Source of the DNA: Candidatus Poribacteria bacterium
GTDB lineage: Bacteria > Poribacteria > WGA-4E > JAJDTR01
Length of the DNA: 64,000 nucleotides
Reading direction: 5' to 3'
Assembly: GCA_965222225.1 (NCBI GenBank)
Contig: CBDCTK010000002.1
Location: 3,872,001 to 3,936,000, forward strand
Below, piece by piece: positions 8,326-37,300 of this stretch. The notes below the pieces were generated by a model. That model saw only the letters and a program-made list of their open reading frames with translations. It did not search any database and was not told the DNA's origin. The position numbers and the translations under genes were made by a program. Each line of letters starts with the position of its first letter. The stretch's first letter is position 1.

Positions 8326-8391
8326 TTGACAGGGTCATGAACTTGCTTGAATGGGACGTGGCGAAACAATCGCAATTGCATGAAGGAGTGA

Positions 8392-8493: not shown

Positions 8494-8513
8494 TCCCGAC
8501 CTACCGGAAAGCG

Positions 8514-8864: not shown

Positions 8865-8962
8865 AAATGTTAACTCCTCACAATCAGCAATGGACGTGCG
8901 CTGCGAAATAGAAGATTACGCTCGATTCAAGCGCATTCCGTACCTCGCAACTCCGTTCTAGT

Positions 8963-10033: not shown

Positions 10034-10504
10034 CGTCTCGATCCTCCAATTTGAATGTATGAATCGCTGTCAGGTGAATGAATCATGTTCGAAGGCAACA
10101 GCTCGCGTAACGACAAAATCAGCGACTCAAGAGCAATCGGATATTCATAGAAATCCTTATGTATGTAGTCCATTTCACAGTATGGCTCTAATCACCGAGT
10201 GCGGGGCTTACCGCGAGTTAGCCTATAGGATAAGATTTTGCCCTCTACACAAAGCGATTGTCGGGTGTACCTGCCGACCTACGAGAAGACATCTTGTAAA
10301 ACAGCGTAATCAGGAAGTATACACCAAAATTCATAAAAGATCAAGAGCATTTGCTGGGATAGAAGCAGGGAATGGCTGAACGGACGGAAGAGTGGAAGGA
10401 GGGAACAGGGTGAATAGAGAAGTAGCGGAGAGGGAGGCCGGGGATTCGATGGTCACCGATGTCACCCTACAGAAAAAGTGCACCACACGGGAGAAAGAAA
10501 CCGA

Positions 10505-10620
10505 TCAACCGACCGGATAAATCAAGCGATCGAACAGGGGGCGATCAAGGGAATGAAAAATGACCGCGATAGAGTTCGCATAGGGATCCCAGGGCGATAG
10601 AAAATCCAGATAGAGATCCC
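10505..10620 (+). repeat. Nested micro-element stack inside an AGAAACCGA...TCGGTTTC palindrome
   Basis: Three 5' ends and four GATAG..ATCC-type 3' ends between the palindrome arms. Confidence 0.8.
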
Positions 10621-10992
10621 TTTCAGGAAAAATCTCGGTTTCAACACCTTGGAATTTACAAAGGCTGGCGGGATTTCTACACCTGAACAAAACGGGCTAC
10701 GAGCCTGTTTGAAAAGTACAGTTTGTAGGGTGCGATCAGCTGACGAGTTCAATCAAACCAAGAGTATAGGTATAAAGATAAACCCACCTACGACATCAAG
10801 AGTCAGTTTGAGTAATGGATAGAAGAGTCATGTCTGGTCACATGAGGAGTGGCTTTTTTGTTGCTTTGCAGTCACTCGCGCTGCAACGCACGCGGAAAAT
10901 GTTTGGTGGTCTCTTCGTGTGCTCGAGAATACGAGAAAAGTAGACAGTGAAACAGTGCGAAGAAAACGGCGGCACTGGCAAAGGAGGTTTTT

Positions 10993-11655
10993 GTGATGAG
11001 AAAAGCGCAATTTTTGGGTTTTAGTCTTTTGCTCACTTCTGTTCTGTTTCTGCAGAACAGTTTTGCCCAAGACTATACCCGATGGGAGTTGCCCGAGGGC
11101 GCCAAATCACGTTTCGGCAAAGGTTTGATAACCGGCAATATAGAGTATTCGCCAGATGGCAGGAAACTCGCGGTTGGGAGCAGCATCGGTGTCTGGCTAT
11201 ATGATACCGCCAACGGTGCCGAAATCAACTTGTTCGCAGGACATACGCGCCCGGTACGTTGCGTGGCGTTCTCTCCTGATGGTACCATACTTGCCAGGGG
11301 GAGTGGTGACACGACGATCCGATTGCTACAGTTGGCACGTTTAGCCGCAGTGTCAAGAGCGACGAACACGTCGCTCTTGCCAAACTACCCGAATCCGTTC
11401 AATCCGGAGACGAGGATGCCGTATCAATTGGCGAAAGCCGCAGAAGTGACATTCACGATTTACGATATGAATGGGTGGAAGGTTCGAACGCTGGCGGTGG
11501 GACATCAACCTGCCGGTGTATATCAGAGTCGCAGCCGTACAGCGCATTGGGACGGGCGGAACGACGCCGGTGAGCCGGTGGGAAGCGGAGTATATTGGTG
11601 CACCCTTGATGCCGGGAGTTATCAAGAAACGCGGAAGATCGTCATACAAAAATAG
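10993..11655 (+). CDS. Secreted protein with a short WD40 region and a C-terminal FlgD-Ig/sorting-like domain; probably internally deleted
   Basis: Signal peptide; YSPDG and GHT..V..VAFSPDG repeats; LLPNYPNPFNPET...WDGRN..GE.VGSGVY tail. Confidence 0.75.
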   Translation: MMRKAQFLGFSLLLTSVLFLQNSFAQDYTRWELPEGAKSRFGKGLITGNIEYSPDGRKLAVGSSIGVWLYDTANGAEINLFAGHTRPVRCVAFSPDGTILARGSGDTTIRLLQLARLAAVSRATNTSLLPNYPNPFNPETRMPYQLAKAAEVTFTIYDMNGWKVRTLAVGHQPAGVYQSRSRTAHWDGRNDAGEPVGSGVYWCTLDAGSYQETRKIVIQK

Positions 11656-11738
11656 CACGTAAGGTTTCTTCCGGAGTAGCTTATCGGGAATCAACAGAAT
11701 TGCGTTTTAGTTCGTTCATGATAGGGTTTGATTCACCA

Positions 11739-12884
11739 TCATTGCGGGATGCTCATCCCAACCGAGATGAAGCGCGCCGCACGCGCGGCAGCCTCAACCG
11801 TAAGGTCAAAAGCGTTTTCAACCGCACTCTCCAACGGCATCGGCGCTGGTACAATATCGATTATGGCGTCGATTCCCGCTCCATGAACGCCCTCGGCTCC
11901 GTCGGCGATACTTCCGGAAACGGCGATCACGGGAATGCCGTACTTCTTTGCAAGCTTCGCGACACCGACAGGCGTTTTGCCAAAAACGGTTTGAAAGTTG
12001 ATTTCTCCTTCGCCAGTCACGACGAAGCTCGCGCCCTCAAGTTGCTTTTCGAGTTGCACGGCGTCAATCACGATCTCCACGCCGGATTTCAATTCAGCAT
12101 TCATAAAAGCGATCAAACCCGCGCCTAGCCCGCCAGCAGCCCCCGCACCCGGAATCTCTCCAACAACTTTCCCCATATCACGTTGAACAACTGAGGCGAA
12201 ATGCGCCAAGTTTGCGTCCAGTGTTTCGATCATCTCGGGCGTCGCGCCTTTTTGCGGTCCATAAACATAGGCTGCCCCGTTCGTGCCCGTCAACGGATTG
12301 TCTACATCGCAAGCGACAACGGTGGCGGTTGCCGCAAGCCGCGAATCTAAATAGGCCAGATTGATTGCGTTGAGTGCACCTAACCCCCCGCCACCGGGTG
12401 AAATCTGTTTACCATCCGATGTCAGCAACTTCGCGCCGAGAGCTTCCGCCATCCCTGCGCCGCCATCGCTCGTCGCACTCCCTCCGATGCCGATGATTAG
12501 CTTCCGACACCCTCGATTCAAGGCGGCTTTAATGAGTTGCCCTGTCCCGTACGTCGTTGTTACCAGCGGGTTACGTCGATCAAATGGCACAAGCGTTAAA
12601 CCGGAAGCCGCTGCCATTTCGATGACTGCCGTAGTCCTATCTCCGAGGATGCCATATTGCGCCTCGATTTCGTTCCCAAGCGGATCCGCAACTCGCTCAA
12701 CTAGAAGCTGACCGCCAGTTGCATCAACAAGCGATTGGACGGTGCCTTCACCACCATCTGCCATCGGCGTTTTTTTTATCATTGCATCGGGAAATACCTT
12801 TCTCATGCCCTGTTCTATGGCTTCGGCAGCTTGCAAAGCGGAAAGGCTTCCTTTGAACGAATCCGGTGCTACAACGATTTTCAT
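11739..12884 (-). CDS. glxK: Glycerate kinase (class I)
   Basis: MKIVVAPDSFKGS, PMADGGEGT, GIGGSATSDGG and GAGAAGG motifs. Confidence 0.93.
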   Translation of the reverse strand: MKIVVAPDSFKGSLSALQAAEAIEQGMRKVFPDAMIKKTPMADGGEGTVQSLVDATGGQLLVERVADPLGNEIEAQYGILGDRTTAVIEMAAASGLTLVPFDRRNPLVTTTYGTGQLIKAALNRGCRKLIIGIGGSATSDGGAGMAEALGAKLLTSDGKQISPGGGGLGALNAINLAYLDSRLAATATVVACDVDNPLTGTNGAAYVYGPQKGATPEMIETLDANLAHFASVVQRDMGKVVGEIPGAGAAGGLGAGLIAFMNAELKSGVEIVIDAVQLEKQLEGASFVVTGEGEINFQTVFGKTPVGVAKLAKKYGIPVIAVSGSIADGAEGVHGAGIDAIIDIVPAPMPLESAVENAFDLTVEAAARAARFISVGMSIPQ

Positions 12885-13081
12885 AGTGGAGTTTTCCGTA
12901 TCCGAAGGCGAGAGAGAAGTTTTTGGAGTAGTGAGAAGCAGTAGGACGACTACGTTCGTGAAGAAAAGTGACAAACCCTTACGGAATGTCGGGTGCCGCT
13001 AGCTTACTTTTCGACGTGTCCGTTCTCTTACCACCAAAACTTTAGCATAGCACACAGATTGAGTTCCACTCAACAGTAAAT

Positions 13082-14069
13082 AGACATCTTTCCAAAATAA
13101 GCATCTATTTGGCTTGATTTTACGTTATATCCTTTCAACATCTTCTATTGTAGAAAGGATACCCATGAGTCAATTTGAAAAAGCAGTAAAGTTGTCAGAT
13201 GAGCAATTTCTGCGGGCGGTTGGTGTTGATAAGACAACTTTCAACCTTATTTTGGAGCGTGTGGCTGTTTACCTCGAAAGTGTTCGAGAAGAACGGCCGA
13301 TGAAGAAACGAGGAAAGAAATCGGAGGTGGCATTGCCCGATCGCCTTCTATTGACATTCACCTATTTGCGCCACTATCCAACCTTTGCCAGATTAGGCAC
13401 GGAGTTTGGTATCAGTGAGTCTTATGCAAATAAAATCTATCATCAGATACTTGATGTGTTATTAAAGTGCTTTCGATGAAGAATCGAAAGCACTTATTAG
13501 AGAGCAATCTCCAAACAATCGTCATTGATGTCACCGAGCAACCCATTGAACGTCCAACAAAAGGACAGCGTGTCTACTACAGCGGTAAAAAAACGGCACA
13601 CAATAAAAGTTCAATTGATTGCGTGTTTGGCGATGTTAGAAATATTATCGGTTATCTGCCGCAAAGGGGGCGTTCACGATTACAGAATTCTGAAGGAAAG
13701 CCGTCTGGCGATTTCCCCCGAAACTGAGAAGTTGGCTGACAGTGGTTATCAGGGCATAGCCAAACTGTATGCCAACAGTTCGACGCCCATCAAGAAATGT
13801 CGGAGTGGGCCCTTGACTCAGGAGGCAAAGCAATTCAACCGACGGTTGGCAACACAAAGGGTTGGTATTGAGCATATCGTCAGATGGTGTAAGATTTTTC
13901 GCATCACCAAAGACATCTATCGAGGCAAACATCGCAACTATGGGAAAACATGGAATGTGATTGCCGCGATTGTTAACTTGTGACACTCCTCGACAAGTTG
14001 CCAAACAGTGTAGTTATTCTAATCTCCAAGATTACTGTAACTACATAATTCCATTTTGGAAAGATGTCT
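13082..14069 (+). mobile_element. IS5-family (ISL2-like) insertion sequence
   Basis: Perfect TIR AGACATCTTTCCAAAAT at 13082-13098 and 14053-14069, with TA at the ends. Confidence 0.88.
13165..13983 (+). pseudogene. IS5-family transposase split over three frames
   Basis: HTH part (YLRHYPT..LG..FGISES), IDVTEQPIERP, YSGKK/RHTIK, LADSGYQG and R..IEH motifs; frameshifts near 13467 and 13590. Confidence 0.85.
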
Positions 14070-14339
14070 AATGAGCTTCGTATCAGGAAAACCGGGCAAA
14101 CGATGAATAAGCTCGGTATCGGGGCAAAAGCGCAACTCCGAATAGATTTTCAGAAAAAACTCAAAAAAGTGCTGTGAAACGCCGATTTATATAAAATTTA
14201 TGAAACGACCGCTAGATAACATCGTTTGTGAAGTGTACGTAAGTTTCAGAAATGTGTTTTGAGTGCGTTCTGGGTGTATCTTTCCAAAAGATATATCATC
14301 CTACATCTTGGCTCGACTGGTACATTTGTAGACACCGGG

Positions 14340-14455
14340 CAATCGAATAGCGAGCAGGATTATCTATGGAATCTCTATCGCACTCACTATCGCGGTAGGA
14401 TTTCTATTGTGCTCCGTGTTCAGTTGCTTAATCCGCCGCTATCCGATTAGTTGAA
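14340..14455. repeat. Degenerate micro-element cluster, mixed orientation
   Basis: GAATAGCGAG followed by minus-strand CTATCGCACTCACTATCGC units. Confidence 0.65.
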
Positions 14456-14615
14456 CGACAGAGATTCGCAGGCTGTTAGGTAGTCAAACGGATATAGTTT
14501 GAGTAAGGATTCGACACTCGGAATTGCCTTAAGAATTCGTTCATAATCAGCGTTTCGAAAGTAATAACAATGGTACTGGTATATTTGTATTCAAATCCTA
14601 AAAATGCATACTATA

Positions 14616-15659
14616 TAGGAGTTACGCAGTTGAGTGAAAATAGGTTATAATTTGAGTATGAATCCCCCTAAATATACTGACACTGACTATATTGATTTCT
14701 TGGTAGCCGCTCAGAAAAGTTACAGTTGTCTTGAATCGGAAAAAGTTCAACCCCAAGCTGATAATCCTCCGGCTCACGATTCGATAACACGGCTCTTGCA
14801 TCGAGAGGAACCCGATACTGGCAAACTGTGGCAAGAATCGAGAAATCAGGTGAAATTAGAATCCGGAATTTTAGTTATAGATGACTCGACTCTGGATAAA
14901 CCTTATTCACAAAAGATTGAACTCGTGACAAAACACTGGTCAGGGAAACACCACCGAGTTGTGAATGGGATTAACTTGGTCACTTTGCTCTGGACGGATG
15001 GCGATAGACATATTCCGTGTGATTATCGAATCTATGATAAAGCCAAAGACGGCTTGACGAAGAATGAGCATTTCCGCGCCATGCTTGAAGAAGCGAAAAC
15101 ACGCGGTTTTGCTCCTGAATGTGTGTGTTTTGATAGTTGGTATGCCAGTCTAAAGAATCTAAAAGCGGTGCGAGGTCATGGTTGGAAGTGGCTTACTCGT
15201 CTAGCTGCCAACCGACTTGTCAGTAAAGATTATTCCGGTAACCGTCCGGTGAGTACGCTTCCGAGTGAATCAACAGGTACAATTGTCCATCTCAAAGGCT
15301 ATGGATTGATTCGAGTATTTAAGGTTGACACTCCAGAAGGTGACATTGAATATTGGGCAACGAATGATTTACAGATGGACGAATTGACGCGTCTCAAATA
15401 TGCCGAATGGTCTTGGACAATAGAAGAATATCATCGCGGGATTAAGCAATTTGTTGGCATTGAACGCGCACAAGTGCGCTCTGCTCGCACTCAAAGAAAT
15501 CATATCGGTTTAGCGCTGAGAGCCTTTCTGAGAATTGAGCACTATTGCTATCATACCGGTATCAGTTGGTTTGATGCAAAACTCTCTATTGTCAGAGATG
15601 CGGTACGGGCTTATTTGGCACAACCTCTTTATACGCTTCAGCCAACTGCGTAACTCCTA
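14616..15659 (+). mobile_element. IS701-family insertion sequence
   Basis: TIR TAGGAGTTACGCAGTTG / CAACTGCGTAACTCCTA; flanking direct repeat CTATA. Confidence 0.9.
14634..15653 (+). CDS. IS701-family DDE transposase (start probably MNPPK)
   Basis: VIDDSTLDKPY, FDSWY and W.IEEYHRGIKQ motifs; stop codon lies inside the right TIR. Confidence 0.9.
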   Translation: MKIGYNLSMNPPKYTDTDYIDFLVAAQKSYSCLESEKVQPQADNPPAHDSITRLLHREEPDTGKLWQESRNQVKLESGILVIDDSTLDKPYSQKIELVTKHWSGKHHRVVNGINLVTLLWTDGDRHIPCDYRIYDKAKDGLTKNEHFRAMLEEAKTRGFAPECVCFDSWYASLKNLKAVRGHGWKWLTRLAANRLVSKDYSGNRPVSTLPSESTGTIVHLKGYGLIRVFKVDTPEGDIEYWATNDLQMDELTRLKYAEWSWTIEEYHRGIKQFVGIERAQVRSARTQRNHIGLALRAFLRIEHYCYHTGISWFDAKLSIVRDAVRAYLAQPLYTLQPTA

Positions 15660-15913
15660 CTATATACTGATATTATATACACAGTTAGCAACAGTTTTGC
15701 CTGCCTAATACATTATACAATCCAGATGTAGTATGTCATTGAAAATCATGCACCAAATAATTCGCTTCAAAGGTTAATATTTTATTTTCAAAACGCTTGA
15801 TTCAATTTCTAAATCGTGCTATACATCGTGCTATACTAAGGTTGTTAAGTGTAGGGAATGGGTATTTCCTTCCCATAAATCCTGTAAGAAAACAACATTT
15901 AAGGAGGTTGACG

Positions 15914-16912
15914 TTGAAAAGTACATACATACTTGCCATTATGTCCCCGGATGGTAGATCTGTGCGGCAGATAGCGGTCGGAAGGTGGTGCTTGAAGTTA
16001 TTATATATTTTCCTCTTTACAGTTATAATCAGCGCACTCGGGGGGATCAGTTACGGGATTTTCTCTAAATCCAGCCACCAGGCGATTGAACAAAAGAACG
16101 CCAACCTTAATGAGAAGGTGCAAACCCTACAAGCCAAACTTGATTCTGAAAAGAGCACAATGGACGAAATTAAGAGAATGGCGGACAAGGTGCGTAGTGG
16201 GTTGGGCATAGACGCGGAAAAAGAAGGAGTGCTCGGACAAGGCGGATCTGGATTTGGCGCCAACTCACTTGAGGATTCTGAATCGAGCGAGGCAATCGTT
16301 GACACGCATTCTACTTCACACTTAGAAGCCTACCCTAGTGAAAAACCGGACTCGTTAAGCACGCGAGTCGCGAAGGCGAAGGCAGCAATTGAACCCGTTT
16401 ACGAATACGTAGAGAAGGAAGAAAAGAGACTGAATGAAACACCTTCTGTCCTCCCCATAATTGCGCCGGAAGATGGCGAAGAGAAAATCTACTGGTACAC
16501 TTCTGGATATGGCCCGCGTCCAAATCCAATAACGAGGCGGGGACGTGAATTTCATACCGGATTAGATATTGCCACCAAAAAGGATACGCCCATCATAGCC
16601 TCCGCACACGGAATTGTTTCATATCGCGGTTACCACAGGCTCTTGGGAAATATGATCAGAGTTAAACACCCCTCAGCGAAAATGGAAACAGTTTATGGCC
16701 ATATGAGTAAGTTCGCTGACGATATGAGCGTCGGGAAAAAAGTCGCACGTGGGGAAGTCATCGGCTATGTGGGTACCAGTGGTCGCAGTACCGGATATCA
16801 CGTGCATTATGGGGTCTGGGAAACCGAGAAAGACTATGAGATTTGGGATTCCAAGGAAGGGCGCTGGATTAATCCGGTGAACTCTATCTTTGGTCATTGG
16901 CCCGGTCAGTAG
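15914..16912 (+). CDS. M23-family metallopeptidase with N-terminal TM and coiled coil
   Basis: HTGLD, YGH and GRSTGYHVHY motifs; TTG start after AAGGAGG. Confidence 0.88.
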   Translation: MKSTYILAIMSPDGRSVRQIAVGRWCLKLLYIFLFTVIISALGGISYGIFSKSSHQAIEQKNANLNEKVQTLQAKLDSEKSTMDEIKRMADKVRSGLGIDAEKEGVLGQGGSGFGANSLEDSESSEAIVDTHSTSHLEAYPSEKPDSLSTRVAKAKAAIEPVYEYVEKEEKRLNETPSVLPIIAPEDGEEKIYWYTSGYGPRPNPITRRGREFHTGLDIATKKDTPIIASAHGIVSYRGYHRLLGNMIRVKHPSAKMETVYGHMSKFADDMSVGKKVARGEVIGYVGTSGRSTGYHVHYGVWETEKDYEIWDSKEGRWINPVNSIFGHWPGQ

Positions 16913-17314
16913 TTTGCAGCGGTTTGCCTAGAATCGTCCTAGGTAGGCATAGGTTAACTCAAACGCCAGATGGTTTTTCGCTATTCTCACAATTTACAAA
17001 ACTATCATATTTTTCGTAGCTAGGCACTTGAGTTTTCAAGGCTATCCCGAATTCACAGCCGCCAAATCTTGGTTTCATTGACCCACGCCTGAATTACGTC
17101 TCTCCCATTTATCAACTTATTATCAACGTACCCTTGCCTCCTTTAAGAAATAATCCGTCCGGTTTTTCCTGATGTGTCCCCTCCAGACATTCATTGCAAG
17201 CAAAAACTAATTTCTGGCCTGTCCCTGATTTTTCATGGCAAAGCCATTTTTTCATTTCGGTTTCGTTGTAACCGGATAGCCCCAATGAATACTATTTCAT
17301 CGGTGGAAGATTAA

Positions 17315-18739
17315 ATGTCACTCTCTTCACATCCCCAACCAAGAATCCCTTTTACAGTTGAGGCTGTTTGCGCAGTCTCCATGCTTTCGATTCTCTTTGT
17401 GCTATCCCTTTCTGCCCAACAGGTTGAAGATTTAACTCAGGGTAGACCGGTTTGTACCGCGATGAATGAGCAACACTTTCCCGACTTGGTATCTGATAGT
17501 GAGGGAGGCATAATCATCGCATGGCAGGATGCGCGGAACGAGAATCGTGATGTCTTTGCGCAGCGTGTTGACGCAAACGGTGAAATGTTATGGATGGCAA
17601 ATGGCGTTCAGGTCTGTAGCCTGCCGAGTGAACAGATCTGGCCGACAGTAGTGTCCGATGCCGACGGCGGAGCGATTATCATATTTGGTGATGGAAGGAA
17701 TAGACATCAAGATATCTATGCTCAACGCATTGATGGAAGTGGAAATCTGCTCTGGCAAAAGGAAGGAATTCCCGTTTGCGTTCATTCCGCAATAAAGACC
17801 GATATGCGAGCTATCTCAGATGGAGAAGGTAACACAATTGTCGTCTGGGAGGACTGGCGAAACGGAAATCAAGATATTTATGCCCAGAAAATTAACGTCA
17901 GCGGTCATCCGATGTGGGATGACAACGGTGTACCGGTATATCGAGGTGAAGGGGATCAGTACGATCCGTTTCTAACGGCAGACGATGAAGGCGGAGCCAT
18001 CGTCGTATGGTGGGACATCAGCACTGACGATTGGGATGTTTTTGCGCAGCGACTGAATAAGGAGGGGCAAGCGGTCTGGTCGGAGACTGCTGTTCCTGTG
18101 TGTACGGCTGCCGGACATCAGAGCACTCCGTTCGTGCTCCCGGATGGAGCGGGAGGAGCGCTCACAGTTTGGCTGGACTATAGAAACGACCCAGGCTTGT
18201 TGAGCAGCGCCGACATCTATGTACAGAGGATTAACGCGGCGGGAAAAACTCTCTGGCAGAAGGACGGTATCGTGCTCTGCGATGCACCGTCAAACCAGCA
18301 AGTGCCCGAAGGTATAAGTGACGCGGCAGGGGGTTTGATTGTCGTGTGGCGAGACGATCGCGATATCTTTTCGGACATTTACGCTCAAAGAATGAATCCG
18401 AACGGGGAACGCATATGGAATAACGACGGCGTTCCTGTCTGTGCGGCGGAAGGCGAACAGCGCAAACCATTCTTAGTCCCCGCCAGTCCGCACGGCGCCA
18501 TTGTGTATTGGCTTGATTATCGCGAAGACTACGGCAATGTTACCCACGACGCAATTTACGCACAGCGGATTGATGGAAATGGAACCTCCTTATGGACGCT
18601 AAGTGGCGTTCCTGTGTGTACTGCCGATGGCAATCAGACGACACCGAGAGCTGTAGCGGACGGCGATGATGGCGCTGTTATTGTGTGGACGGACTCCCGC
18701 GGTGAATCCTCGGACATTTATCTTCGGCGGGTGCCTTGA
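17315..18739 (+). CDS. Secreted repeat protein (DIYAQR repeats, probably beta-propeller)
   Basis: Signal-like N-terminus; about 7 repeats of Q..P.L.SDG.GG.I.VW.D.R...DIYAQRI...G..LW...G.PVC. Confidence 0.75.
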   Translation: MSLSSHPQPRIPFTVEAVCAVSMLSILFVLSLSAQQVEDLTQGRPVCTAMNEQHFPDLVSDSEGGIIIAWQDARNENRDVFAQRVDANGEMLWMANGVQVCSLPSEQIWPTVVSDADGGAIIIFGDGRNRHQDIYAQRIDGSGNLLWQKEGIPVCVHSAIKTDMRAISDGEGNTIVVWEDWRNGNQDIYAQKINVSGHPMWDDNGVPVYRGEGDQYDPFLTADDEGGAIVVWWDISTDDWDVFAQRLNKEGQAVWSETAVPVCTAAGHQSTPFVLPDGAGGALTVWLDYRNDPGLLSSADIYVQRINAAGKTLWQKDGIVLCDAPSNQQVPEGISDAAGGLIVVWRDDRDIFSDIYAQRMNPNGERIWNNDGVPVCAAEGEQRKPFLVPASPHGAIVYWLDYREDYGNVTHDAIYAQRIDGNGTSLWTLSGVPVCTADGNQTTPRAVADGDDGAVIVWTDSRGESSDIYLRRVP

Positions 18740-18834
18740 ACGCCTGTTTGAAAACCCTAAGTGCATCTATAAACAGGGCGCTCTTCCGAGGCGCAGGAGT
18801 GAAAAACTGCGAGCCTATGCTATCTACCTAACCA

Positions 18835-20208
18835 TTACACAATCTGATGTTTCTCTACAAGCTGTTTTACGGATTCCAGCGGAATGCCGAGTTGTCGTGC
18901 GATGGCTTCTAAGTCGCCTTGGGATTCCGCGTATGCTTCCGTCAAGAGTTGCTTTTCAAACTCCCGTAGTCTATTAGTTAACGATTGTCCATCAGTCTCT
19001 GCTGTATACGCCGCGAGAATTTCCTGCGGCAAATGATGTATGGAAATTGCGTCTCCTTCAACTTTATAAGTGATTTGTTCAATAACATACTTGAGTTGAC
19101 GTACATTACCGGGCCAGTGATAAGCGTTCATACAATCAAGTGTCTCAGGCAACAGTTTCTTAGGCTTAACCCCTGCCACTTCGGCAGACAAGCGTTCCAT
19201 AAAGTGGTAACACAGGAGTTCAATGTCTTCGCGGCGCTCACGTAGAGGGGGCAGCCAAATTGTCTCGAACGCGAGTCGATCATAAAGATCTTCGCGGAAT
19301 TTGCCCTGCTGCATTTCCGACTCAAGATCGCTGTTCGTTGCGGCAAGAACACGGACATCTACTTTTAACGTCTTCGATCCACCAACCCGCTCAAACTGCT
19401 GGTATTCCAGTACGCGGAGAATCTTTTGTTGGAACTCGTAAGACATGTTTCCAATCTCATCCAAAAAGAGCGTTCCTTTATCTGCCAACACGAAACGTCC
19501 TTCCCGGAACGAAGAGTTGGTGAAAGCGTTATCCTCCTGTCCGAACAGTTCGCATTCCAAGAGCCCTTCCGCCAAAGCGGCACAGTTGATGGTTATGAAG
19601 GCATTTTTCTTTCGTGGACTATCATGATGAATGCCTGCCGCGACCAACTCTTTCCCTGTTCCCCGCTCACCGCGAATTAAAATGGGACGCGGTATTGGCG
19701 CAACCTCCTGAATCTGTTGAATTAATCGCTGGATCTGGGGGCTTTTGCCAACAATATTGTACTTGCCTTTCAATTCTTCGCGGTAGAATTCGCGTTCTTG
19801 ACGTAGGCGTTTATTGTCGATCGTTGTGCGGATAAGGTTATCAAGCCGCATGAGGGCTAGTTCCATGTTTTCTTCGAGGTAAAAATCCTTCTCGACGAAC
19901 TCTTCCGCCCCCAGCTTAATCGATTCTGCAGCGGTTGAGACGGTACCCTTGCCGGTCAAGATGATCACTGGAAGTGCGGTTGTCCTTTTTCTAATTTCCT
20001 CCAGACAAGCGAGTCCACTCATTTGACCCTCGCCGAAATCAAGATCGAGGATGGCAAGGTCAAAGGCGTCACTACCTTTAACAATGAGGTCGAGCGCTTC
20101 TTGGGCGGTACCGACGGAAGTGACCTCCGCCCTTCGTTTCGCGAGCATCTCTCGTAGCAAGTCTTGTATTTCTTCCTGATCATCGGCAACCAAGATGCGT
20201 TCTGGCAT
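18835..20208 (-). CDS. NtrC-family response regulator (REC-AAA+-HTH)
   Basis: Receiver domain; [24 protein letters not shown] and WPGNVRQL motifs; GAFTGA loop reads NAFTNS. Confidence 0.9.
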
Positions 20209-20242
20209 TTTCACCTCCCTACCGTGTGCCACACTGTCGCAA

Positions 20243-22210
20243 TTACACCAGCTCTTCAAAAGCAAGATCGCCTCGCGCCTCGTAAAAGATTGGCCGCATC
20301 TGCAGGTTTGTTTTTATCGGAACGGCGTCCGGATTTACCGGGAGATGAATTATGAATGTCGTTCCGCCTCCCTCCTTGCTGCGCAGATCTATACTCCCCA
20401 TGTGATCGCGCACCGTTCGTTGAACGATAGTCAAACCAAACCCGCTGCCTCCCTTTTTGCGCGTATACCCCGGCTGAAAGATTTTTTGCCGAAGTGTATC
20501 CGGAATACCCTCCCCTGTGTCAGCGAAGGAGATTTGAATTTTCGAGGATTGGGACTGATATTCGGTTTGAATCTGCAGGACACCCCCGTCTTCCATCGCT
20601 TCAAAAGCGTTGATTAGGACGTTATGAAACGCTTCTTTCAGTTGGCTCGAGTCGCCTTTGATAAACGGGAGATTCGCCGCTAAATCCGGTTGACACTCAA
20701 TTCTTTTGGCTGTACAAACGGACCTCAGTTTAATTAACAGATTCTCAATGAGCCTATTGATGTCAACCAGTTCCGAGACCGGCGCTTCTGTTCGCAGTGT
20801 GTCCAGGATTTCGGTCAACTGATTATACGAGTCCTCATGTTGAGTCAAGGTTCGATTGAGCATGCTATGCAGCTTGGAGGCAGGGTCCGACTGGCGCAAC
20901 GCCGATCGGAGCTGTACACCGCTAATGCTAACGAGGTTCTTAACACGATGCAAACGGGAAATCAGGCTTTGGTGCCCCTCGGCGCGCGCGACATCAATAA
21001 GTGAGAGAGAAAGTCGAAAGATTATCGCTGCGGCAACCTGTGGACGGAATGTTAGCCAGCCGCGGAGATCTTTTAGAAGTTCCTCGTCATGCTCGTAAAA
21101 GTAGAGTTTCGCAAGATTGTGGTATGGGGCTTCATAATCCGGCTCGAGTTGGATCGCTTGGCGAAATTCCTCGGCGGCTTTCTGAATCTGCTTTTCTTGC
21201 AAATACAAGAGCCCGAGATTATTTCTTACCTGAGCGGAGGGAGCATATTCCAAGCCCGTTTGATAAGCGGAAATCGCCAATTTCGCGTCGGCAGGATTAT
21301 CGTCGTAAAGACTTCCCAGAATAAAATAGACCTGATCCATCTGATCAAAGGTCTTCAACATCTCATTTCTTGATATTAATTGGACAAATTGATCGATTGC
21401 TTCCTGACGATACTCGGGATGATTGTAACGATTCTTCGCATAGAGCAGCCCTAGCGCAAAACGGGCATCCAGATGGTCGGGATCCCGTTCAACTGCACTT
21501 TTGAGGCAGTCAATCGCAAGACTCAAATCTCCTGAACGTTTCAGATGGACATCGGCAAGGTGATAATAAGCATCGGAGTCGTTGGGTTCGATGCTAAGAA
21601 TCTCCTCCAACACCTGTTGCGCTTCGGCCCACATCTGCCGTTTGATGTATAGCACAGCAAGGTTATAACGCGCGGCATAATTCGGCATTCGCGCCACGAC
21701 CTGTTGAAAATCGTGGCACGCTTTTTCAAGCTCGCCCCGCTTGTCATAGAGCGATCCGCGATCGTACCGCGCCTCGACATAAGACGGATCAAGTTCGATT
21801 GCCCTTGTGAATTCATGGATTGCTTCCTGCCACGCGCCGTCAAGATCGTAGTAGTCTTGGAGTAATTGCCCCAGCGAATAGTGATAATGCGCGCTCAACG
21901 GATTTAGCGAAATTGCCCTTTGGAAAGAATCTTTGGCGGCATCGAATTCCCCCTCCTTGTAGTATGCCAACCCTAATCTGTGATGAATAGCGGCGCACTC
22001 CGAATCCAGTTCCAGCGCACGTTTGTACGTTAGGATTGCAAGGCTATAGTGCCGTTCATTGAAATACCAATCTCCCAGAAGACACTGATCTCTTGCCACG
22101 GTGGTAGTTGGAGGATGGGGTTCCGCACGTGAAAGACGAGAGTCTTCGCCTTGGCGAAGACTAGCGGAATTTAGAGAGGGGTTGTGTGCGGGCGAGTAGG
22201 ATTTATGCAT
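20243..22210 (-). CDS. TPR-repeat sensor histidine kinase
   Basis: Many TPRs; H-box LHRVKN; NVLINAFEA, DTGEGI and GSGFGL HATPase boxes. Confidence 0.85.
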   Translation of the reverse strand: MHKSYSPAHNPSLNSASLRQGEDSRLSRAEPHPPTTTVARDQCLLGDWYFNERHYSLAILTYKRALELDSECAAIHHRLGLAYYKEGEFDAAKDSFQRAISLNPLSAHYHYSLGQLLQDYYDLDGAWQEAIHEFTRAIELDPSYVEARYDRGSLYDKRGELEKACHDFQQVVARMPNYAARYNLAVLYIKRQMWAEAQQVLEEILSIEPNDSDAYYHLADVHLKRSGDLSLAIDCLKSAVERDPDHLDARFALGLLYAKNRYNHPEYRQEAIDQFVQLISRNEMLKTFDQMDQVYFILGSLYDDNPADAKLAISAYQTGLEYAPSAQVRNNLGLLYLQEKQIQKAAEEFRQAIQLEPDYEAPYHNLAKLYFYEHDEELLKDLRGWLTFRPQVAAAIIFRLSLSLIDVARAEGHQSLISRLHRVKNLVSISGVQLRSALRQSDPASKLHSMLNRTLTQHEDSYNQLTEILDTLRTEAPVSELVDINRLIENLLIKLRSVCTAKRIECQPDLAANLPFIKGDSSQLKEAFHNVLINAFEAMEDGGVLQIQTEYQSQSSKIQISFADTGEGIPDTLRQKIFQPGYTRKKGGSGFGLTIVQRTVRDHMGSIDLRSKEGGGTTFIIHLPVNPDAVPIKTNLQMRPIFYEARGDLAFEELV

Positions 22211-22241
22211 CGTTGTGAGGTAGGAGTGATCTCCGAATCAA

Positions 22242-22350
22242 TCAACCGAGTGGATAGCGAGTAGGATTTTCTATCGCCTTGGGATTTCTATGAACTCCAT
22301 CACACTCGCTATTCACTCATTTGATCCCTCGTTGTCCACTCGGTCAATCC
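22242..22350. repeat. Micro-element cluster, mixed orientation, next to a GTAG-REP
   Basis: TCAACCGAGTGGATAGCGAGT followed by nested minus-strand copies. Confidence 0.75.
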
Positions 22351-22458
22351 TACAGGATTGCGGAAGAAAGAAAACGAGTTTTGAGGAAAAAACACTCGGT
22401 TTCGGGGGAAATAGCGTTGCTCTGCATAGATTTCCAAACGGATTCTTGCCAACCGAAC

Positions 22459-24030
22459 TCAAATGAGAAGCTCGTCGCCGATTGGAAAGAATTGATCCGC
22501 CATTCGTTGCAGGTCCATGGATGTATTATGCTCGAAAGCGACAACCTCGACTCGCTTGCCTTGTTGCTTTATAAGCTCCGCAAGCGCGCAAAAGTCACCG
22601 TCGCCGCTGGCTAGAATTACGACATCAAGCGCTCCTAGCATTGACACGATGTCAATTGCGATGCCCACATCCCAGTCCCCCTTTGCTGTACCATCTCCTC
22701 GGAGACGCAAGTCCTTGCTTTTTATGGTATATCCATTATGCTCAAGAAGGGACAAAAATCCCGACTGGTTTATCTCGGGAATCTGGACGACATAGGCATA
22801 CGCCACGACAAGCTGCCGCGGGCCAACGATGAGATCGAGTAGTTTGATATAATCCACTCGCCCGGCATACCGGTCTTTGGCGGCGTAGAACATGTTCTGA
22901 ACATCCACAAAAACACCAACACTCGGCTGTTCTTTCAGTACCCTATTTTGCAAACTCTGTCTGGAATCGTGTTGACCAAAAAATTGTTCCACTTTGTCGC
23001 GGGTGCGTAGAAGTGCCGACTTTGACATCTCGGAGAACTTGCTCAGTTCTGATACCTGCGACTGGAAGTCCGAGTGCATTCGTTCAATCGTTTGATTACC
23101 TTTATAAACGAGTTCCTCAAAGGATTTCAATTCAACAGCAAACTCCGCTTGCGTAACCTTCTGAAAGGATTGAATTTCCGCAGACTGATTCGACAGTTTT
23201 TCAACCTGCCGTTTGAGGTTGTGAATCTCCAGTTGTAGCTGTTGAACATGTATATCTTGTTCCATGAATCGGTGTTCTTTTTCCCGGAAATCCTCGTTTT
23301 CTTGAAGAGACTGTTGCAGTTGCCGTTTGAGGTCTTCATTATCTTTTTTTTGAGCGGCATACTCATCGTTCAGTTGATTTACCGTTTGCTGGAGTCGGAC
23401 AAGTTTCCGATTAGTTTCGAGATGGGGATCTTCCTTTGGAATTGGGGCCTGTGCGATTTTCTCGGTCAGTACGTCCGCACCAACGTCCAATGCTTGAATT
23501 GCATTGATGCTTTCATTTGTCCTAGTTTTCGGCGAGTGGACACCGCGATTGGTGTCATTAGTTTTTGCGTCATGTTCGGATCTCGTCAAGCTGCCAAAAT
23601 TGGCTATTTCATGGACAGACTGCTCATATTCTTTGAGGAGTTTTTGTCCGTGCCGTTGGACGTCTTGGCGGGAATCAGTCAAAAGTGCCCACACAATCTC
23701 GGTGAAGTCTCCTCCTTCGACCAAAAGTGTGCAAGTTCTTAGGAAAGTTTGAATCTCCTGCAAATCCATATAGCCGACCCGGCGAATTGCTCCTTCCGTC
23801 TTCTGCACGAGATACTCATGCACGACCTGTTGAGCGGTCTCTTGACGAAAAAAAGCCTCGGCTAGATTCTCGATAACCCAATTGACAGAACGAGAGTCCA
23901 TCTGCGCGGGGGCGTCACGGATACCGCATCGGGTTTTTAGGCTGGTTATCTCCTTTTCGTCAAGCAATTCAGTAAGAATCCAAGTAAGTTGGTGTTTGTC
24001 GATTTGAATCTTTATATTTTGCTGAATCAT
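22459..24030 (-). CDS. Coiled-coil protein with C-terminal NYN (LabA/DUF88, PIN-like) domain
   Basis: VFVDVQNMFY, KGDWDVGIAID and LASGDGDF motifs. Confidence 0.88.
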   Translation of the reverse strand: MIQQNIKIQIDKHQLTWILTELLDEKEITSLKTRCGIRDAPAQMDSRSVNWVIENLAEAFFRQETAQQVVHEYLVQKTEGAIRRVGYMDLQEIQTFLRTCTLLVEGGDFTEIVWALLTDSRQDVQRHGQKLLKEYEQSVHEIANFGSLTRSEHDAKTNDTNRGVHSPKTRTNESINAIQALDVGADVLTEKIAQAPIPKEDPHLETNRKLVRLQQTVNQLNDEYAAQKKDNEDLKRQLQQSLQENEDFREKEHRFMEQDIHVQQLQLEIHNLKRQVEKLSNQSAEIQSFQKVTQAEFAVELKSFEELVYKGNQTIERMHSDFQSQVSELSKFSEMSKSALLRTRDKVEQFFGQHDSRQSLQNRVLKEQPSVGVFVDVQNMFYAAKDRYAGRVDYIKLLDLIVGPRQLVVAYAYVVQIPEINQSGFLSLLEHNGYTIKSKDLRLRGDGTAKGDWDVGIAIDIVSMLGALDVVILASGDGDFCALAELIKQQGKRVEVVAFEHNTSMDLQRMADQFFPIGDELLI

Positions 24031-24072
24031 TTTAGGCCTCCAGTAGTTGCGATTGTTTTTTGAAACGTAGGA

Positions 24073-24189
24073 TCAAGCGAACGATCAACTGAGCGGATAG
24101 CGAAGGCGATAGTAAATCCCATAGTGAGTGCGATAGAGATTCCCTCAAACGAGATCGACCGAACTGACAGTGAGTGCGACAGCTTTTTC
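24073..24189 (+). repeat. Cleanly nested micro-elements (inner 24085-24120 inside outer 24073-24144) plus further copies
   Basis: Removing the inner 36 bp restores an intact outer copy. Confidence 0.88.
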
Positions 24190-24232
24190 CCGCTTTCTCT
24201 GATTATCCGTAGGAACGATCTTCCAATCCCTA

Positions 24233-24808
24233 CTATCTCCGAATGGTTGTATCACTAGAAGAAACAATCCATTCCGCAGCCGCATAAATATCCGCGAATA
24301 CCCGTTGGGGCTGCATTGGGGAAGCAGCACCCACATCATTAGTCAAACTCGATTTGTGACCATTCCCTGTTAATACAAGCAACGGACAAACGCCAAACTC
24401 ATTCCCCGCCTGAATGTCGCTATTTGAATCGCCAATTAAGTAGGTGTTATCTATATCAATTTCATGTTGCGATGCCGCCCGCAACAGCATACCGGGTTTA
24501 GGTTTGCGGCACGTGCAATTCTCGTCATCACGATGGGGGCAATAGTAAACGGCGTGGATACGACCGCCGGCGCCCTCGATTTCAGCCAACATCTTGCAGT
24601 GGATTTCGTTCAGCATCTTGAGTGACAGAATTCCTTTATTGATGCAAGCTTGATTTGTGACGGTGATGAGTTGATAGCCGGCATGAGTGAGCAATCTGAT
24701 TGCCTCCAGAGAGTTTGGCAGAAACTCAAACTCACTCCAACTTTTGACATAATCACTATCGCGATTACGGTTGATTACGCCGTCCCGATCAAGAAACACC
24801 GTCTTCAT
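24233..24808 (-). CDS. gmhB: D-glycero-D-manno-heptose 1,7-bisphosphate phosphatase
   Basis: FLDRDGVIN, TNQ and CPH...C.CRKPKPG motifs. Confidence 0.93.
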   Translation of the reverse strand: MKTVFLDRDGVINRNRDSDYVKSWSEFEFLPNSLEAIRLLTHAGYQLITVTNQACINKGILSLKMLNEIHCKMLAEIEGAGGRIHAVYYCPHRDDENCTCRKPKPGMLLRAASQHEIDIDNTYLIGDSNSDIQAGNEFGVCPLLVLTGNGHKSSLTNDVGAASPMQPQRVFADIYAAAEWIVSSSDTTIRR

Positions 24809-27832: not shown

Positions 27833-28138
27833 AGGACTTTGGACGCGAGAAACGCTTCCTTTCGTTGATTTTTTAGTGTCATAGGTAGGAGGGAATTCCG
27901 ATTCCCGACGATTGGCTTCAACCTAGGGCGGATTCCATCTCGCTCGAAAGATCAAGACTCTTTTGCGCGATCAGGTTGGGCGTGAGCGTGGTGGCTGCTA
28001 CGATGCCGATTAACATGAGCACGCCGCCGAGCGCAATGTACCCCGATTTCTGCTTGTAATTCATATATATCTGCCTTTTGTACGGAAAATATGTAGGTTA
28101 GGTTTAGTTGAATATGTGGGAATAGTAAGATTCCATAA

Positions 28139-28297
28139 GAGCCTGTTTGAAAATACAGTTTGTAAGGTGCGATCAAGCGAATGAATAATGAGCGCGATAG
28201 AGATCCTACAGATATGTAGCAGCCAACAATGAAAACATGAAAAAACTTCCGACAAATGACTAAAAATGGCTTTGCCACCGATAATTCAAGCAGGCTC
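28139..28297. mobile_element. MITE with TIR GAGCCTG(T/C)TTGAA and TAA target duplication, carrying a micro-element (28173-28207)
   Basis: TAA|GAGCCTGTTTGAA...TTCAAGCAGGCTC|TAA; homologs at 47516 and 60378. Confidence 0.85.
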
Positions 28298-28371
28298 TAA
28301 GATTCCCTTTTCAAGTAAAAACTAGGATTCACCGCAAGTACATTTTCAATCGGATTCTTATAGCTATTCGC

Positions 28372-34283: not shown

Positions 34284-34335
34284 TCAACTGAGATCAAGGG
34301 AGCGCGATAGGGATCCCAAGGCGATAGGCAATCTC
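34284..34335 (+). repeat. Nested micro-elements
   Basis: TCAACTGAGA-TCAAGGGAGCGCGATAGGGATCCC-AAGGCGATAGGCAATCTC. Confidence 0.8.
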
Positions 34336-34368: not shown

Positions 34369-37300
34369 CTACTTCCGTATCAACATCTTCCGTGTCGCCG
34401 CAAATTCACCCGCCCTCAGCGTATAGAAATATAAACCGCTGGCGATCGACTCGCCACGCCCATTCCGACCATCCCAATACGTTGCACGTCCTAGGCTCTG
34501 ATACATGCCCGCCGCTTGATGCCCCACATCAAGACGTCGCACTAGCTGTCCCCCGATGTCATAGATGGTCAGTGCGATCTCTGCCGGAGCTGCCAACTGG
34601 TACGCTATCCAGGTCTCAGGATTGAAGGGATTCGGATAATTGGGCAGGAGTGCCGTCTCTGACGGGATCATCGAGGCTGACAACACCTCGAGGTTGGCTA
34701 TGGCTTGTCGGAAGGCGATTGAGCCGTCGTCTGCGAGTCGTGCTTGGGCAATCCACGTCTCTATTGTCTTGGATTCTAACCCATGCGCTGGCGGCGCGGC
34801 AGTTCCGCCAATTCCCTGAGCGACGAGAGTGAGGTCGAATATATTTACAACCCCATCGCCATTAACATCCACGCTCGAGTTGGCGGGCACACTTCTCCCT
34901 AACTGCCGCGCAACCAGAATCAGATCCAAAATACTGACAACTCCATCACGATTTACATCCCCGGTCATCAGCCGTTCCTCCACAATGAAAGTGATTTCAT
35001 GCGGCCCCGCCGGGATGTTTTCACCAGTGAAAGAGCCAAGCTGGAAGTTACCCAGCGCCACTGCTGTTTCGCCTTCAGACTTCGCCTTAAACCTTACCTG
35101 AAGCAGGGGACCGCTGCCACTGACGCCACTGTCGGAAAGCAGCGCAGCCTTGAGTCCCATGATTTTTCCATTTGCGTTATCAATACGCCCAGCCTGAAAG
35201 AAGACTGTTCCTCCATCCGTCTTCAGGAAATCGCCTTCGCTCGTGTCAATCGCTTCAAGGACGAAAGAATCAAAGGCGATATCAAACTGCCACCCCGCCA
35301 AGTCGAACACATTTTCTGCTCGGATGTCGAGGCTAAAGGTATCGCCGATGTGAATTGGCGTCTCGGAAAAGGCGTAGCCGACGCCAGTTCCCACCGTATA
35401 TTCAGTGTTGGGCTCAAATCCAAAGAAAGCGCCGGTGTCGAAACTAGGCGAGAAAACCGCAACTAACAAAACATTTTTCCCCTGCTGAAGCGTAACCGGG
35501 AAAAAATCATTGTAATCAAGCTCCAGCGCCCTGTCACCCAGCACCTCGTAGACCAAATCTCCGTTGAGCCAGACCTTTAGTCCTTCGTCGTTGCCAACGT
35601 GCATCCTTGTCTTCTGTTCCCGTGGCGAATAGAGGGATATAGTGCCGTAGATAACGCCGTCGCTCAGCATACCTCCGATGTTGTTCCGATCCGTAGACGG
35701 GAGTTGGTGGGAGGTCCACACGTCATCGCCAACTGATTTTCCCACTGTTGCCCCCTGTGTGGCGACGTCCACCTCTGTCACCGTACCGTCACTGGCTTCT
35801 GATAGTAAATCGGTACTGCTATCCAGTATGGTGTCCGGTAACAAGACCCATAACCAAGGTCCCCCAATTTTTGGACCTCCTTGTGGGAAACCCGGATTGT
35901 CGTACGTCCCAAGGAATTTCATATTGGGACGTAACCCGTCTAGAGGAGAAAGATCGGAGATTTCGTTCACGGAGACATCCAGCCATGTTAAATTGGATAA
36001 ACCGGCGAGCGCCGATATGTCTGAGATTATGTTGTTGTGGAGGTTCAACCACTTCAAGTTGGATAACCCTGCAAGGGATGATATATCCGATATATCATTA
36101 CGTGAAAAATCTAGCCGTTTCAAATCGGTTAATCCCGCAAGGGGTGAAATATCCGCTACGTCGTTGCCGAATAGATACAGTTCTTCTAGGCCCGTCAAGC
36201 CCGCCAAAGGGGTAAGATCCGATATATCTCCACCGGGAAGAATAAATGCCTCAGTTTTGTCAATCCTGCCAAGGGCGATAAATCGGATGCGGATGTGCCC
36301 ATGTGAATGAGTTCCAGGTTGACTAATCCGGCAAGCGGCGATAGATCGCGTATGTTAGAGTGACTCACAAAGAGTTGCTCTAACTTGGGTAGCCCAGCAA
36401 GGGGTGTAAGGTCCTCTACTCCATGAAGAGCTAAAAAAGTTAGATTAACCAATCTGGAAAGCTGTTTCGCGTCATGAATAACGGAAGGTGAATCGATGAA
36501 GTCAATATCTAGAGCTTTTAACTGGGTTAGTCCTGCTATCGGAGAGAGATCGGACACCTTAGACCCACTACCATTTATGCTAGACAGATTGGTCGCAAAC
36601 TGAAGACCGGTTAAATCGCGGATATCTTGGCCCTCTATTATGCTCAAGAAAGTCAATCCTTCCATGTCTTCCACGGTTATCGGGGCATTGGGACTTTTGC
36701 CAAGTTCTTCAGCAATGGCAGTGCGTAGGTTCGGATCCGGGATATAAACCTGCGTACCCGGTATTACATCCGGCTGCGTTATTACCGGGGGCTCTCCAAC
36801 TTGCCCCGGGTAATCCAGCGCATACATCACGTCTCGAAAACTCGATGTCCAGGTGTCCCGTTGCACGCTCCCGTTCTCACCCTCTAACGCCAACAAACCT
36901 ATGTTCTGTAGTCCCGTGTTCTCACGAACCTTTTCGAGAAAGACTTCGGTTTCTAAACCAACCACGGCAGCGGCGTATGCGGCGTCTACCGGTCCCTGAA
37001 ACGCCTCATGGAAACGTGAAATCGGCTCAACCCCGCCAATCGCACCGCCCGTCTCTACAAGCGCTTCCCGATAGCGCTCCATGTCGCCACCCACACGAGC
37101 GTCCATGTCCGACTTTTCAACGTAGAGTCGCAACGCCTGCGCTTTGTTGTAAGGCGGGTTGGTATTGCTCTCAATCACGGAACGTACCTGGTCTTCAAGG
37201 GTCTTCATTCCCTCCGTATGACAACCTATACAGGAAAGTCCGTTGCACACCGTCGGGTCGCTGGCTGCGGGGTTGGAAACAATGTTTATCGGCGCCTCGT

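Follow-up and report, generated by a model that had tools for sequence, protein, structure and literature searches.

The repeat cluster and its gene neighborhood

The window analyzed here is a stretch of 64,000 nucleotides (64 kb) from the genome of a Candidatus Poribacteria bacterium, and the searches described below extended to the whole genome (5.70 Mb in two contigs, 50% GC). Between two minus-strand genes of this window, one encoding an NYN-domain protein and the other a HAD phosphatase, lies a cluster of short repeats in which an intact copy of a 36-nt sequence separates the two parts of another copy of the same sequence, the outer copy. The features of the cluster are as follows.

24067-24070, plus strand: GTAG tag directly 5' of the cluster, the hallmark of the host REP family
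24071-24072, plus strand: GA left flank of the outer copy, near-invariant in the family (G in 789 and A in 848 of 884 copies)
24073-24084, plus strand: 5' part of the outer copy, TCAA GC GA AC GA, up to loop position 11 (TCAAGCGAACGA)
24085-24120, plus strand: inner copy, intact, 36 nt, in the loop of the outer hairpin (TCAACTGAGCGGATAGCGAAGGCGATAGTAAATCCC; no pattern mismatches; class L=36, shift 0, p=12)
24121-24144, plus strand: 3' part of the outer copy, ATA GT GA GT GCGATAG AGATTCCC (ATAGTGAGTGCGATAGAGATTCCC)
24145-24191, plus strand: third, older, degenerate copy in tandem, consisting of TCAA AC GA, a 10-nt head fragment and AC TG ACA GT GA GT GCGACAG CTTTTTCCC

The preliminary description of this DNA had interpreted positions 24073-24144 as one 36-nt copy nested in another, and this interpretation holds: excision of 24085-24120 leaves a sequence with no mismatches at the 20 fixed core positions of the family and with four of four stem pairs, the stem letters GC and AC of the 5' part (24073-24084) pairing with GT and GT of the 3' part. 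The two copies had been described as unlike each other and, by direct reading, they indeed differ at 6 of the 8 variable positions. The further claim that excision fixes the boundaries of the insert is correct for 24085-24120, where shifting the cut by one base in either direction breaks the consensus, but it does not carry over to every class of insertion sites: some need a unit shifted by 1 nt and lose 1-3 target bases.

The degenerate copy at 24145-24191 has a counterpart with the same tail and loop in the genome G005 and a degenerate counterpart in G003. We observe that in the apparently orthologous G005 copy (locus L006) the unusual tail and the ACA loop are retained and the stem letters differ, a difference that reflects either conversion of the stem or re-insertion of a different copy at the same spot.

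The 36-nt family and its hairpin

The consensus of the family, hereafter the micro-element, is (G)A/TCAA nn GA nn GR ATA nn GA nn GCGATAG followed by a tail (here and below, the slash marks a junction), with a unit length of about 36-37 nt, the usual tail ARAT(T)CCC and a nearly invariant GA before TCAA. A 36-nt IUPAC pattern matched 10 sites in the window and none in any of 100 shuffled sequences. Across the genome, a loose form of the pattern retrieved 884 copies, and the 28-nt core TCAA..GA..G.ATA..GA..GCGATAG, with at most 2 mismatches allowed at the 20 fixed positions, retrieved 1030 copies, of which 864 have all four stem pairs. Among the 1027 chromosomal copies, 908 (88%) are located outside the genes of a crude ORF-based annotation, which cover 80% of the chromosome.

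The copies comprise 241 stem variants, and the variable positions covary in pairs. Mutual information is highest for pair 8-16 (1.20 bits), followed by 5-19 (1.01 bits), 4-20 (0.80 bits) and 9-15 (0.45 bits), the next pair of core positions reaching 0.24 bits. In the 20 window copies, 92.1% of the cells are paired vs 56.1% after shuffling (a level reached in 0 of 500 shuffles) and 22-55% in slid controls, and there are 40 double-sided changes compared to 11.6 in shuffled copies. In the hairpin model, a stem of two 2-bp helices, which flank a tandem G.A pair, ends in a GRATA loop, and the minimum-energy RNA fold of the plus strand reproduces this covariation model. Frequent G.T wobbles on the TCAA strand (222 of 884 copies at pair 4-20), which would be A.C on the opposite strand, identify the TCAA strand as the pairing strand. 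The hairpin is thermodynamically weak, with a folding energy no better than that of shuffled sequences on either strand, as DNA or as RNA (z from -0.6 to +1.6). The stems show position-specific exclusions, namely no T at n4 or n8 and no A at n5. Because the stem letters vary yet stay complementary, the data suggest that the recognized feature is the shape of the hairpin together with the fixed letters rather than the sequence of the stem. A search of Rfam gave no family match anywhere in the 64-kb window.

Adjacent copies within 400 nt of each other in this genome are co-oriented in 275 cases and opposed in 76, with no preferred spacing. At about 2.7057-2.7079 Mb of the chromosome, micro-element copies and fragments, in either orientation, account for nearly all of a stretch of more than 2 kb; the segmental duplicate at 2.706-2.708 Mb was considered for comparison and proved too rearranged.

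Other copies and nests in the window

Several additional copies in the window are located within copies of the micro-element itself or within other repeats.

4463-4498, plus strand: copy in the loop of a GTAG REP hairpin (GTAGGGGCGAGG ... CCCTCGCCC)
4655-4735, plus strand: complex nest, an interrupted outer copy with a short-form copy and an intact copy (4700-4735) after the outer G21
8392-8427, plus strand: solitary copy, with a reverse copy (core 8466-8493) facing it about 40 nt away
10505-10620, plus strand: nest at least three levels deep with stacked tails and an intact innermost core at 10545-10572
28165-28208, plus strand: copy within a MITE of about 190 bp (terminal inverted repeat TAAGAGCCTGTTTGAA), in the loop of its GTAG REP
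34284-34335, plus strand: short-form copy inside a short-form copy, the outer CT pairing with AG
44324-44359, plus strand: copy in the GTAG REP loop of another MITE copy (GTAGGGTGCGA/TCAA...CCCTGCGCACC)

Similar nesting had been proposed for five other sites. At 4654, 10505 and 34284, outer sequence is present on both sides of the insert, but at 53736 and 63606, a head fragment of 8-11 nt precedes the copy and there is no 3' remainder of an outer copy, so that these two sites give no evidence of nesting.

The MITE of about 190 bp, with its inverted ends TAAGAGCCTGTTTGAA, is found in the window at 28136-28310, 47513-47700, 60377-60650 and about 44287-44520, with a partial copy near 10698, and its right arm produced 94 BLAST hits in the genome. 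Its interior consists of GTAG REP and REP_A hairpins and often carries micro-element copies. A 66-nt periodic repeat at 35990-36557 was rejected as a DNA element: it is contained in two leucine-rich-repeat ORFs and represents the coding periodicity of these repeats.

Nesting throughout the genome

Excision of an inner copy restores the outer copy across the joint for 127 of 999 copies in a wide search and for 115 of 1030 copies in a narrow search without a pairing filter. In the proposed recursive parsing of clusters, with tabulation of insertion positions, 103 copies were removed in the first round and 6 more in the second, revealing nests of up to three levels. The positions at which hosts are interrupted are few, namely after G10A11 in the loop (18 cases), n15-A18 (34), G21-G23 (51) and n8-n9 (5), the insertion sites being 12, 16-19, 21-24 and 9-10. 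In 14 nests the inner copy is reversed, and all of these have one target, the CG within the host's GCGATAG as read on the opposite strand.

The variable stem letters provide a direct test of whether the two flanking parts belong together. Among 24 events at the loop site, the outer halves form all four pairs in 15 (null expectation 0.117), whereas the outer left half combined with the inner right half does so in 0 of 24; at positions 17-19, 25 of the 36 events have matches in both split pairs (null 0.28). The stem-letter test replaced an earlier null in which excision at shifted offsets gave 0-30 'restorations', as tandem and nested neighbors create chimeras. In the 115 nested events, the inner and outer copies share on average 2.37 of the 8 variable positions, compared to 3.20 for random pairs, and at most 6; the events represent 104 distinct combinations. 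At equal thresholds, inner copies have fewer consensus mismatches than their hosts (0.58 vs 1.47) and, with junction positions excluded, the inner copy is nearer the consensus in 52 informative events vs 22. Being closer to the consensus, the inner copies look younger than their hosts, which is the order expected if the inner copy arrived later.

The nests might alternatively be products of replication slippage, of tandem duplication within one copy or of partial tandem head/tail repeats, rather than of separate insertions. Such an origin would agree with the prevalence of co-oriented neighbors (275 vs 76 within 400 nt), with the abundance of orphan tails and head fragments, including those at 53736 and 63606, and with one putative locus of a second genus (L022) in which the inner copy is nearly identical to the outer one. 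We nevertheless regard it as highly improbable: the dissimilarity of inner and outer copies speaks decisively against slippage or tandem duplication, the mutual pairing of the outer halves in 15 of 24 and 25 of 36 events far exceeds the respective nulls, and neither the 14 reversed inner copies nor the diversity of inner-outer combinations is accounted for. Motif convergence is refuted by the matching stem letters of the outer halves. The initial proposal of true insertion, as opposed to slippage or motif convergence, is thus supported by the dissimilarity of inner and outer copies, the matching stem letters of the outer halves, the closeness of the inner copies to the consensus and the differences between species in orthologous spacers that are described below. 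Orphan 3' tails roughly match complete nests in number (none/R22 in 82 cases vs H22/R22 in 80), so that a model of nesting requires frequent loss of 5' halves.

Junctions of inserted copies

The left junction reads G/ATCAA in every class of sites, and the right junction varies, the host resuming at A12, n19, G23 or A24. The rule that a copy starts at TCAA after GA and causes no duplication applies to the loop class and to the class after G17A18, in which a 36-nt TCAA...TCCC unit restores the host exactly, but the starting boundary differs in the other classes. In the class after G21, the unit ATCAA...TCC is needed, or else C22 or C22G23 is lost, and in the class after n15, three target bases are lost. 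No target duplication is present in any junction class, and the number of target bases lost is 0-3.

Hosts other than the micro-element itself, REP_A among them, give comparable junctions. In one host REP, GGGGCGACAGG becomes GGGG[ATCAA...TCCC]ACAGG, and in a host with GTGCG followed by CACTGCGCACC, one insert of exactly 34 nt is found, along with a more frequent form that lacks one base. A comparison of filled and empty copies of the MITE was set aside because the filled and empty REPs have other differences besides the insert and a single ancestral insertion accounts for most of the filled copies; it contains a single exact 34-nt case (the AGATCCACT form). The junctions fit a unit of roughly 37 nt that is joined with 1-nt overlaps and small losses.

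A dispersed 72-nt composite

The 72-nt composite at 24073-24144 has 14 further copies in the genome, with 85-97% identity, and matches of 89-98% identity in six sister genomes (G001, G002, G004, G005, G008 and G009). Given this recurrence, the insertion need not have happened at 24073-24144, and the recurrence implies either that the composite is mobile as a whole or that its site is an insertion hot spot. On balance, it appears probable that the 72 nt are one copy of a composite that was formed once or a few times long ago and then dispersed as a unit, without insertion at this locus. This scenario is supported by the identical architecture of the 14 other copies (outer AC/GT stems with an inner CT...AG copy in the loop), which have mostly unrelated flanks, and by the outer and inner stem letters that loop-class events have in common with one another. 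However, the inner and outer tail and stem variants assort in several combinations, a pattern that would also fit an active inner type inserting again and again at ACGA/, its preferred target, and five of the copies have a larger repeat in common on their right side and hence are hitch-hikers. Dispersal of the composite refines the insertion reading rather than rejecting it, since the composite itself had to arise by insertion. The insertion at 24085 probably predates the locus, and the nest was probably inherited rather than made in place.

REP context, strand bias and candidate enzymes

A GTAG tag is found within 20 nt upstream of TCAA for 259 of the 819 copies that are first in their cluster (32%), compared to 121 of 2457 control positions (5%). 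The spacers between GTAG and TCAA correspond to the 5' arms of several GTAG REP families. Micro-element copies are located inside REP loops, including those within a MITE, and in the remnant of a transposase gene.

The orientation of the copies follows the local GC skew: the plus to minus ratio is 168:302 where the skew is positive and 400:157 where it is negative; at the level of clusters, for an absolute skew of at least 0.015, the ratios are 59:133 vs 145:43 (p = 4e-20). The TCAA strand is the strand with more C than G. Orientation is independent of the flanking genes (323 same, 293 opposite). The strand bias remains when there is no GTAG nearby (odds ratio 0.33, n = 396), and the GTAG REPs have the same orientation bias (odds ratio 0.13). 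Post-insertion selection against hairpins on the lagging-strand template could be the source of this bias. As a separate observation, the sign of the GC skew flips about ten times on the 5.6-Mb contig, with corresponding changes in the orientation of the GTAG REPs and of the micro-element; these sign changes suggest many inversions, or assembly joins, in this metagenome-assembled genome (MAG).

The genome contains five Y1 (PF01797) genes, none of which is convincingly cognate to the micro-element, and one weak match to reverse transcriptase. One of the Y1 transposase-like genes, P0001 (157 aa; motifs DHIH, WQ and YIKNQEAHH), is located outside the window at 3080258-3080728 of the chromosome (locus L108); PMC6006769 lists these motifs for its subclass 1.2, which it gives as lacking a REP. 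In 12 of 12 loci from four Poribacteria genera (including L115-L125), P0001 has inverted copies of a different hairpin REP (GCCCCAGnGGGGCGAnAGGTGTATAG) on either side, often in tandem, and P0001 together with these repeats is a REPtron-like arrangement. P0001 was identified in 76 of 121 genomes, 52 of which are among the 82 sampled from a family without the micro-element, and was not found in 2 of the 4 element-bearing genomes of the second genus. With a different REP in all 12 loci and negative co-occurrence with the micro-element, P0001 was rejected as the cognate enzyme. The RAYT-like fragment at L112 was rejected as well, given that its intact homologs in G001, G003 and G005, the one in G003 being a frame of 225 aa, are in loci of about 3.2 kb without the element core. 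The L108 and L112 loci of the window's own genome do have flanking micro-element copies. Locus L109 has no micro-element within 3.3 kb, and L109, L110 and L111 gave no support for a cognate gene.

Distribution and turnover among Poribacteria

The phylum-wide sample comprised 121 genomes, which were searched for the core with at most one mismatch. All eight sampled genomes of the window's genus contain 616-1309 core copies, and all four genomes of a second genus, from another family, contain about 210 (207-216). There are 3 matches in the sister genus and one in each of two other genomes, with 0-1 per genome in the other sister of the two element-bearing genera, and none in the 82 genomes of the largest family; a reversed-pattern control gave no matches in any of the 121 genomes. 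A pattern scan over species genomes retrieved at least 80 loci, those listed all being from Candidatus Poribacteria MAGs. The putative loci of the second genus have the same core, the tail TCTT or TTTT, and inverted pairs of copies about 19 nt apart.

Presence and absence at orthologous sites was scored at the level of species (80-88% identity). At the site orthologous to 24076-24255, the spacer of G001, G002 and G006 measures 33-37 bp and has no copy, that of G005 has a single copy and that of G003 a degenerate nest. In G006 the counterpart of 27882-28359 has a single copy; G002 has a three-level nest there, and G001 a different arrangement with the same outermost tails. A conserved Y1 gene is followed downstream by a REP that is empty in G002, G004 and G009, and filled in G000, G001 and G005.

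These patterns bear on the possibility that the micro-element is a selected structural module, an RNA or a protein-binding array built by recombination or gene conversion among copies, such that the nests would be the outcome of selection for a branched fold rather than of mobility. The strong covariation with base exclusions and the preservation of a hairpin-in-loop architecture by the insertions are compatible with a selected fold, as is the different stem of the apparently orthologous ACA-loop copies in G000 and G005, which could stem from conversion. This possibility nonetheless appears unlikely given the copy number that ranges from 0 to about 1300 between related genera, the folding energy no better than that of shuffles, the orientation independent of neighboring genes and the lack of an Rfam match in the window. 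Moreover, the presence of copies within REPs, within a MITE and within a transposase-gene remnant is typical of selfish DNA.

Comparison with known repeats and mobile elements

By description, the closest known kind of repeat appears to be the SDR elements of Nostoc. The SDR1-SDR8 elements of Nostoc punctiforme and its relatives, which Elhai et al. described in 2008 (Genome Res 18:1484), are reported to be very small (21-27 nt) dispersed intergenic repeats that share a secondary structure with compensatory changes, encode no protein and vary in presence between related genomes; SDR1 and SDR4 copies reportedly occur inside copies of themselves, and SDRs within other repeats and minitransposons. 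To our knowledge, neither an enzyme nor an intermediate has been reported for these elements. The micro-element resembles them in being a high-copy, mostly intergenic, non-coding repeat (1030 copies, 36 nt) that encodes no protein, has a structure with compensatory changes, nests in itself, is located inside other repeats and a MITE, and is present or absent at orthologous sites at the species level. The two differ, in a comparison of descriptions rather than sequences, in length (36-37 nt vs the 21-27 nt reported for SDRs), in host (Candidatus Poribacteria vs Nostocaceae) and in the targets of the micro-element, which are GTAG REP loops and its own hairpin. According to PMC5861425, which cites the SDR work, SDR-like repeats were not found in HIP1-rich cyanobacteria other than the Nostocaceae; HIP1 is rare in the Poribacteria genome (117 copies). 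The Nostoc SDR elements are also cited in passages of PMC3116915 and PMC2884548.

The micro-element shares with REP, BIME and REPIN repeats and their RAYT genes, as presented in parts of PMC3116915 and PMC6006769 (the latter with an overview of the IS200/IS605 family), an imperfect hairpin of about 35 nt, hundreds of clustered intergenic copies and a genome with several Y1 genes. It also has the same strand bias as the GTAG REPs of its own genome. Unlike REPs, which include a conserved 5' GTAG or GTGG tetranucleotide, it has no internal GTAG tag and starts with (A)TCAA, the nearby GTAG (259 of 819 clusters) belonging to the host REP; its stems covary instead of being conserved (241 variants), and no RAYT gene is flanked by it in relatives. 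As to the inverted doublets at fixed spacing that characterize REPINs, the copies in the window's genome are mostly co-oriented (275 vs 76), with no fixed doublet spacing, and the putative second-genus loci contain inverted doublets. Self-nesting at defined positions is, as far as we know, not a described property of REPs.

MITEs have terminal inverted repeats and target-site duplications and are usually longer than 50 bp, whereas the micro-element has 36 nt, only GATC...GATC ends and no target-site duplication. Elements of the IS200/IS605 family possess two subterminal hairpins and are inserted precisely 3' of a fixed tetra- or pentanucleotide by a cognate TnpA that recognizes the hairpins. 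The micro-element is similar in its lack of target duplication, the short fixed motif at the insertion, the hairpin and the coupling of orientation to the direction of replication, but differs in having a single hairpin, a length of about 36 nt vs 100 nt or more, an imprecise right junction (0-3 bases lost) and no cognate gene among those found. In addition, its structured strand is the C>G strand, the opposite replication strand to that of the active strand in IS608. The insertion sequences IS1397 and ISKpn1 reportedly target REP loops, as stated by Tobes and Pareja in 2006. The preference for REP hairpin loops is common to these and the micro-element; however, they are full insertion sequences that are said to have a transposase and target duplications, whereas the micro-element encodes nothing. 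Literature searches on Poribacteria repeats and on small nested mobile repeats turned up no account of the family.

A possible mechanism of insertion

We consider it likely that the 72-nt segment combines two very small dispersed elements of a lineage-specific family, and that one of them entered the hairpin loop of the other. As the junctions show, new copies are placed immediately 3' of a G, yielding G/ATCAA, with no target duplication and a loss of 0-3 bases. The preferred targets are exposed regions of hairpins, including the element's own loop (after G10A11) and own 3' arm (after G15, G17A18 or G21). They also include, on the opposite strand, the CG within the element's GCGATAG, and the loops of GTAG-type host REPs. 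Insertion presumably would occur on single-stranded DNA at the replication fork. Repeated insertion would build nests up to three deep, and a composite such as the 72-mer could then be copied again as a unit. Most likely, the micro-element is selfish DNA without a host function.

The agent we rank first, tentatively, is a REP-type Y1 (HUH) enzyme acting in trans. A precise Y1 cut-and-paste reaction does not predict the heterogeneous right junction and the loss of 0-3 bases. Template switching by the polymerase between copies at microhomologies, at the fork, ranks second and is a somewhat more doubtful candidate, and an RNA/cDNA route of insertion seems improbable.

More speculatively, the family might represent a second, independently evolved class of 'micro-transposons', in which a single-stranded hairpin of about 37 nt, recognized by its shape, would be copied into G/N sites of its own and GTAG REP loops at the replication fork by a trans-acting REP-type Y1 enzyme or by the replisome, with nested composites that stay mobile and build larger repeats recursively. 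If so, the smallest mobile DNA known would be a general by-product of REP/HUH systems and not a cyanobacterial oddity.

Implications for the study of minimal elements and for genome assembly

Judged by likeness to described repeats, the micro-element would rank with the smallest known elements that look mobile, and would be the first such element seen outside cyanobacteria. How DNA of 20-40 bases multiplies and inserts is a question posed since the Nostoc SDRs, and the Poribacteria family provides a second, much larger data set to address it: every one of the eight species sampled in one genus has 600-1300 copies, every one of the four in the other has about 210, and their neighbors have essentially none. 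Features amenable to testing include the stem 'barcodes' that match halves, the constant left junction, the small number of insertion positions and the replication-strand bias common to GTAG REPs.

The recursive build-up of repeat clusters in these sponge-symbiont genomes matters for assembly and for the annotation of intergenic regions. The window region is contained in 20 sequencing runs from 8 studies, and the contigs of 4 of these public runs were compared over window positions 4400-24399. They break at repeat clusters, and none spans 24073-24144. The contigs of two runs skip 38 nt at 4461-4500, with a match of only 19-20 nt on one side, which may reflect paralogous REPs. The contigs of all four runs also skip window positions 14608-15658, with 9 letters common at the joint; this segment is therefore a polymorphic insertion sequence of 1049 bp, with an ORF for a DDE transposase of 339 aa (14634-15653; PF13546/PF01609).
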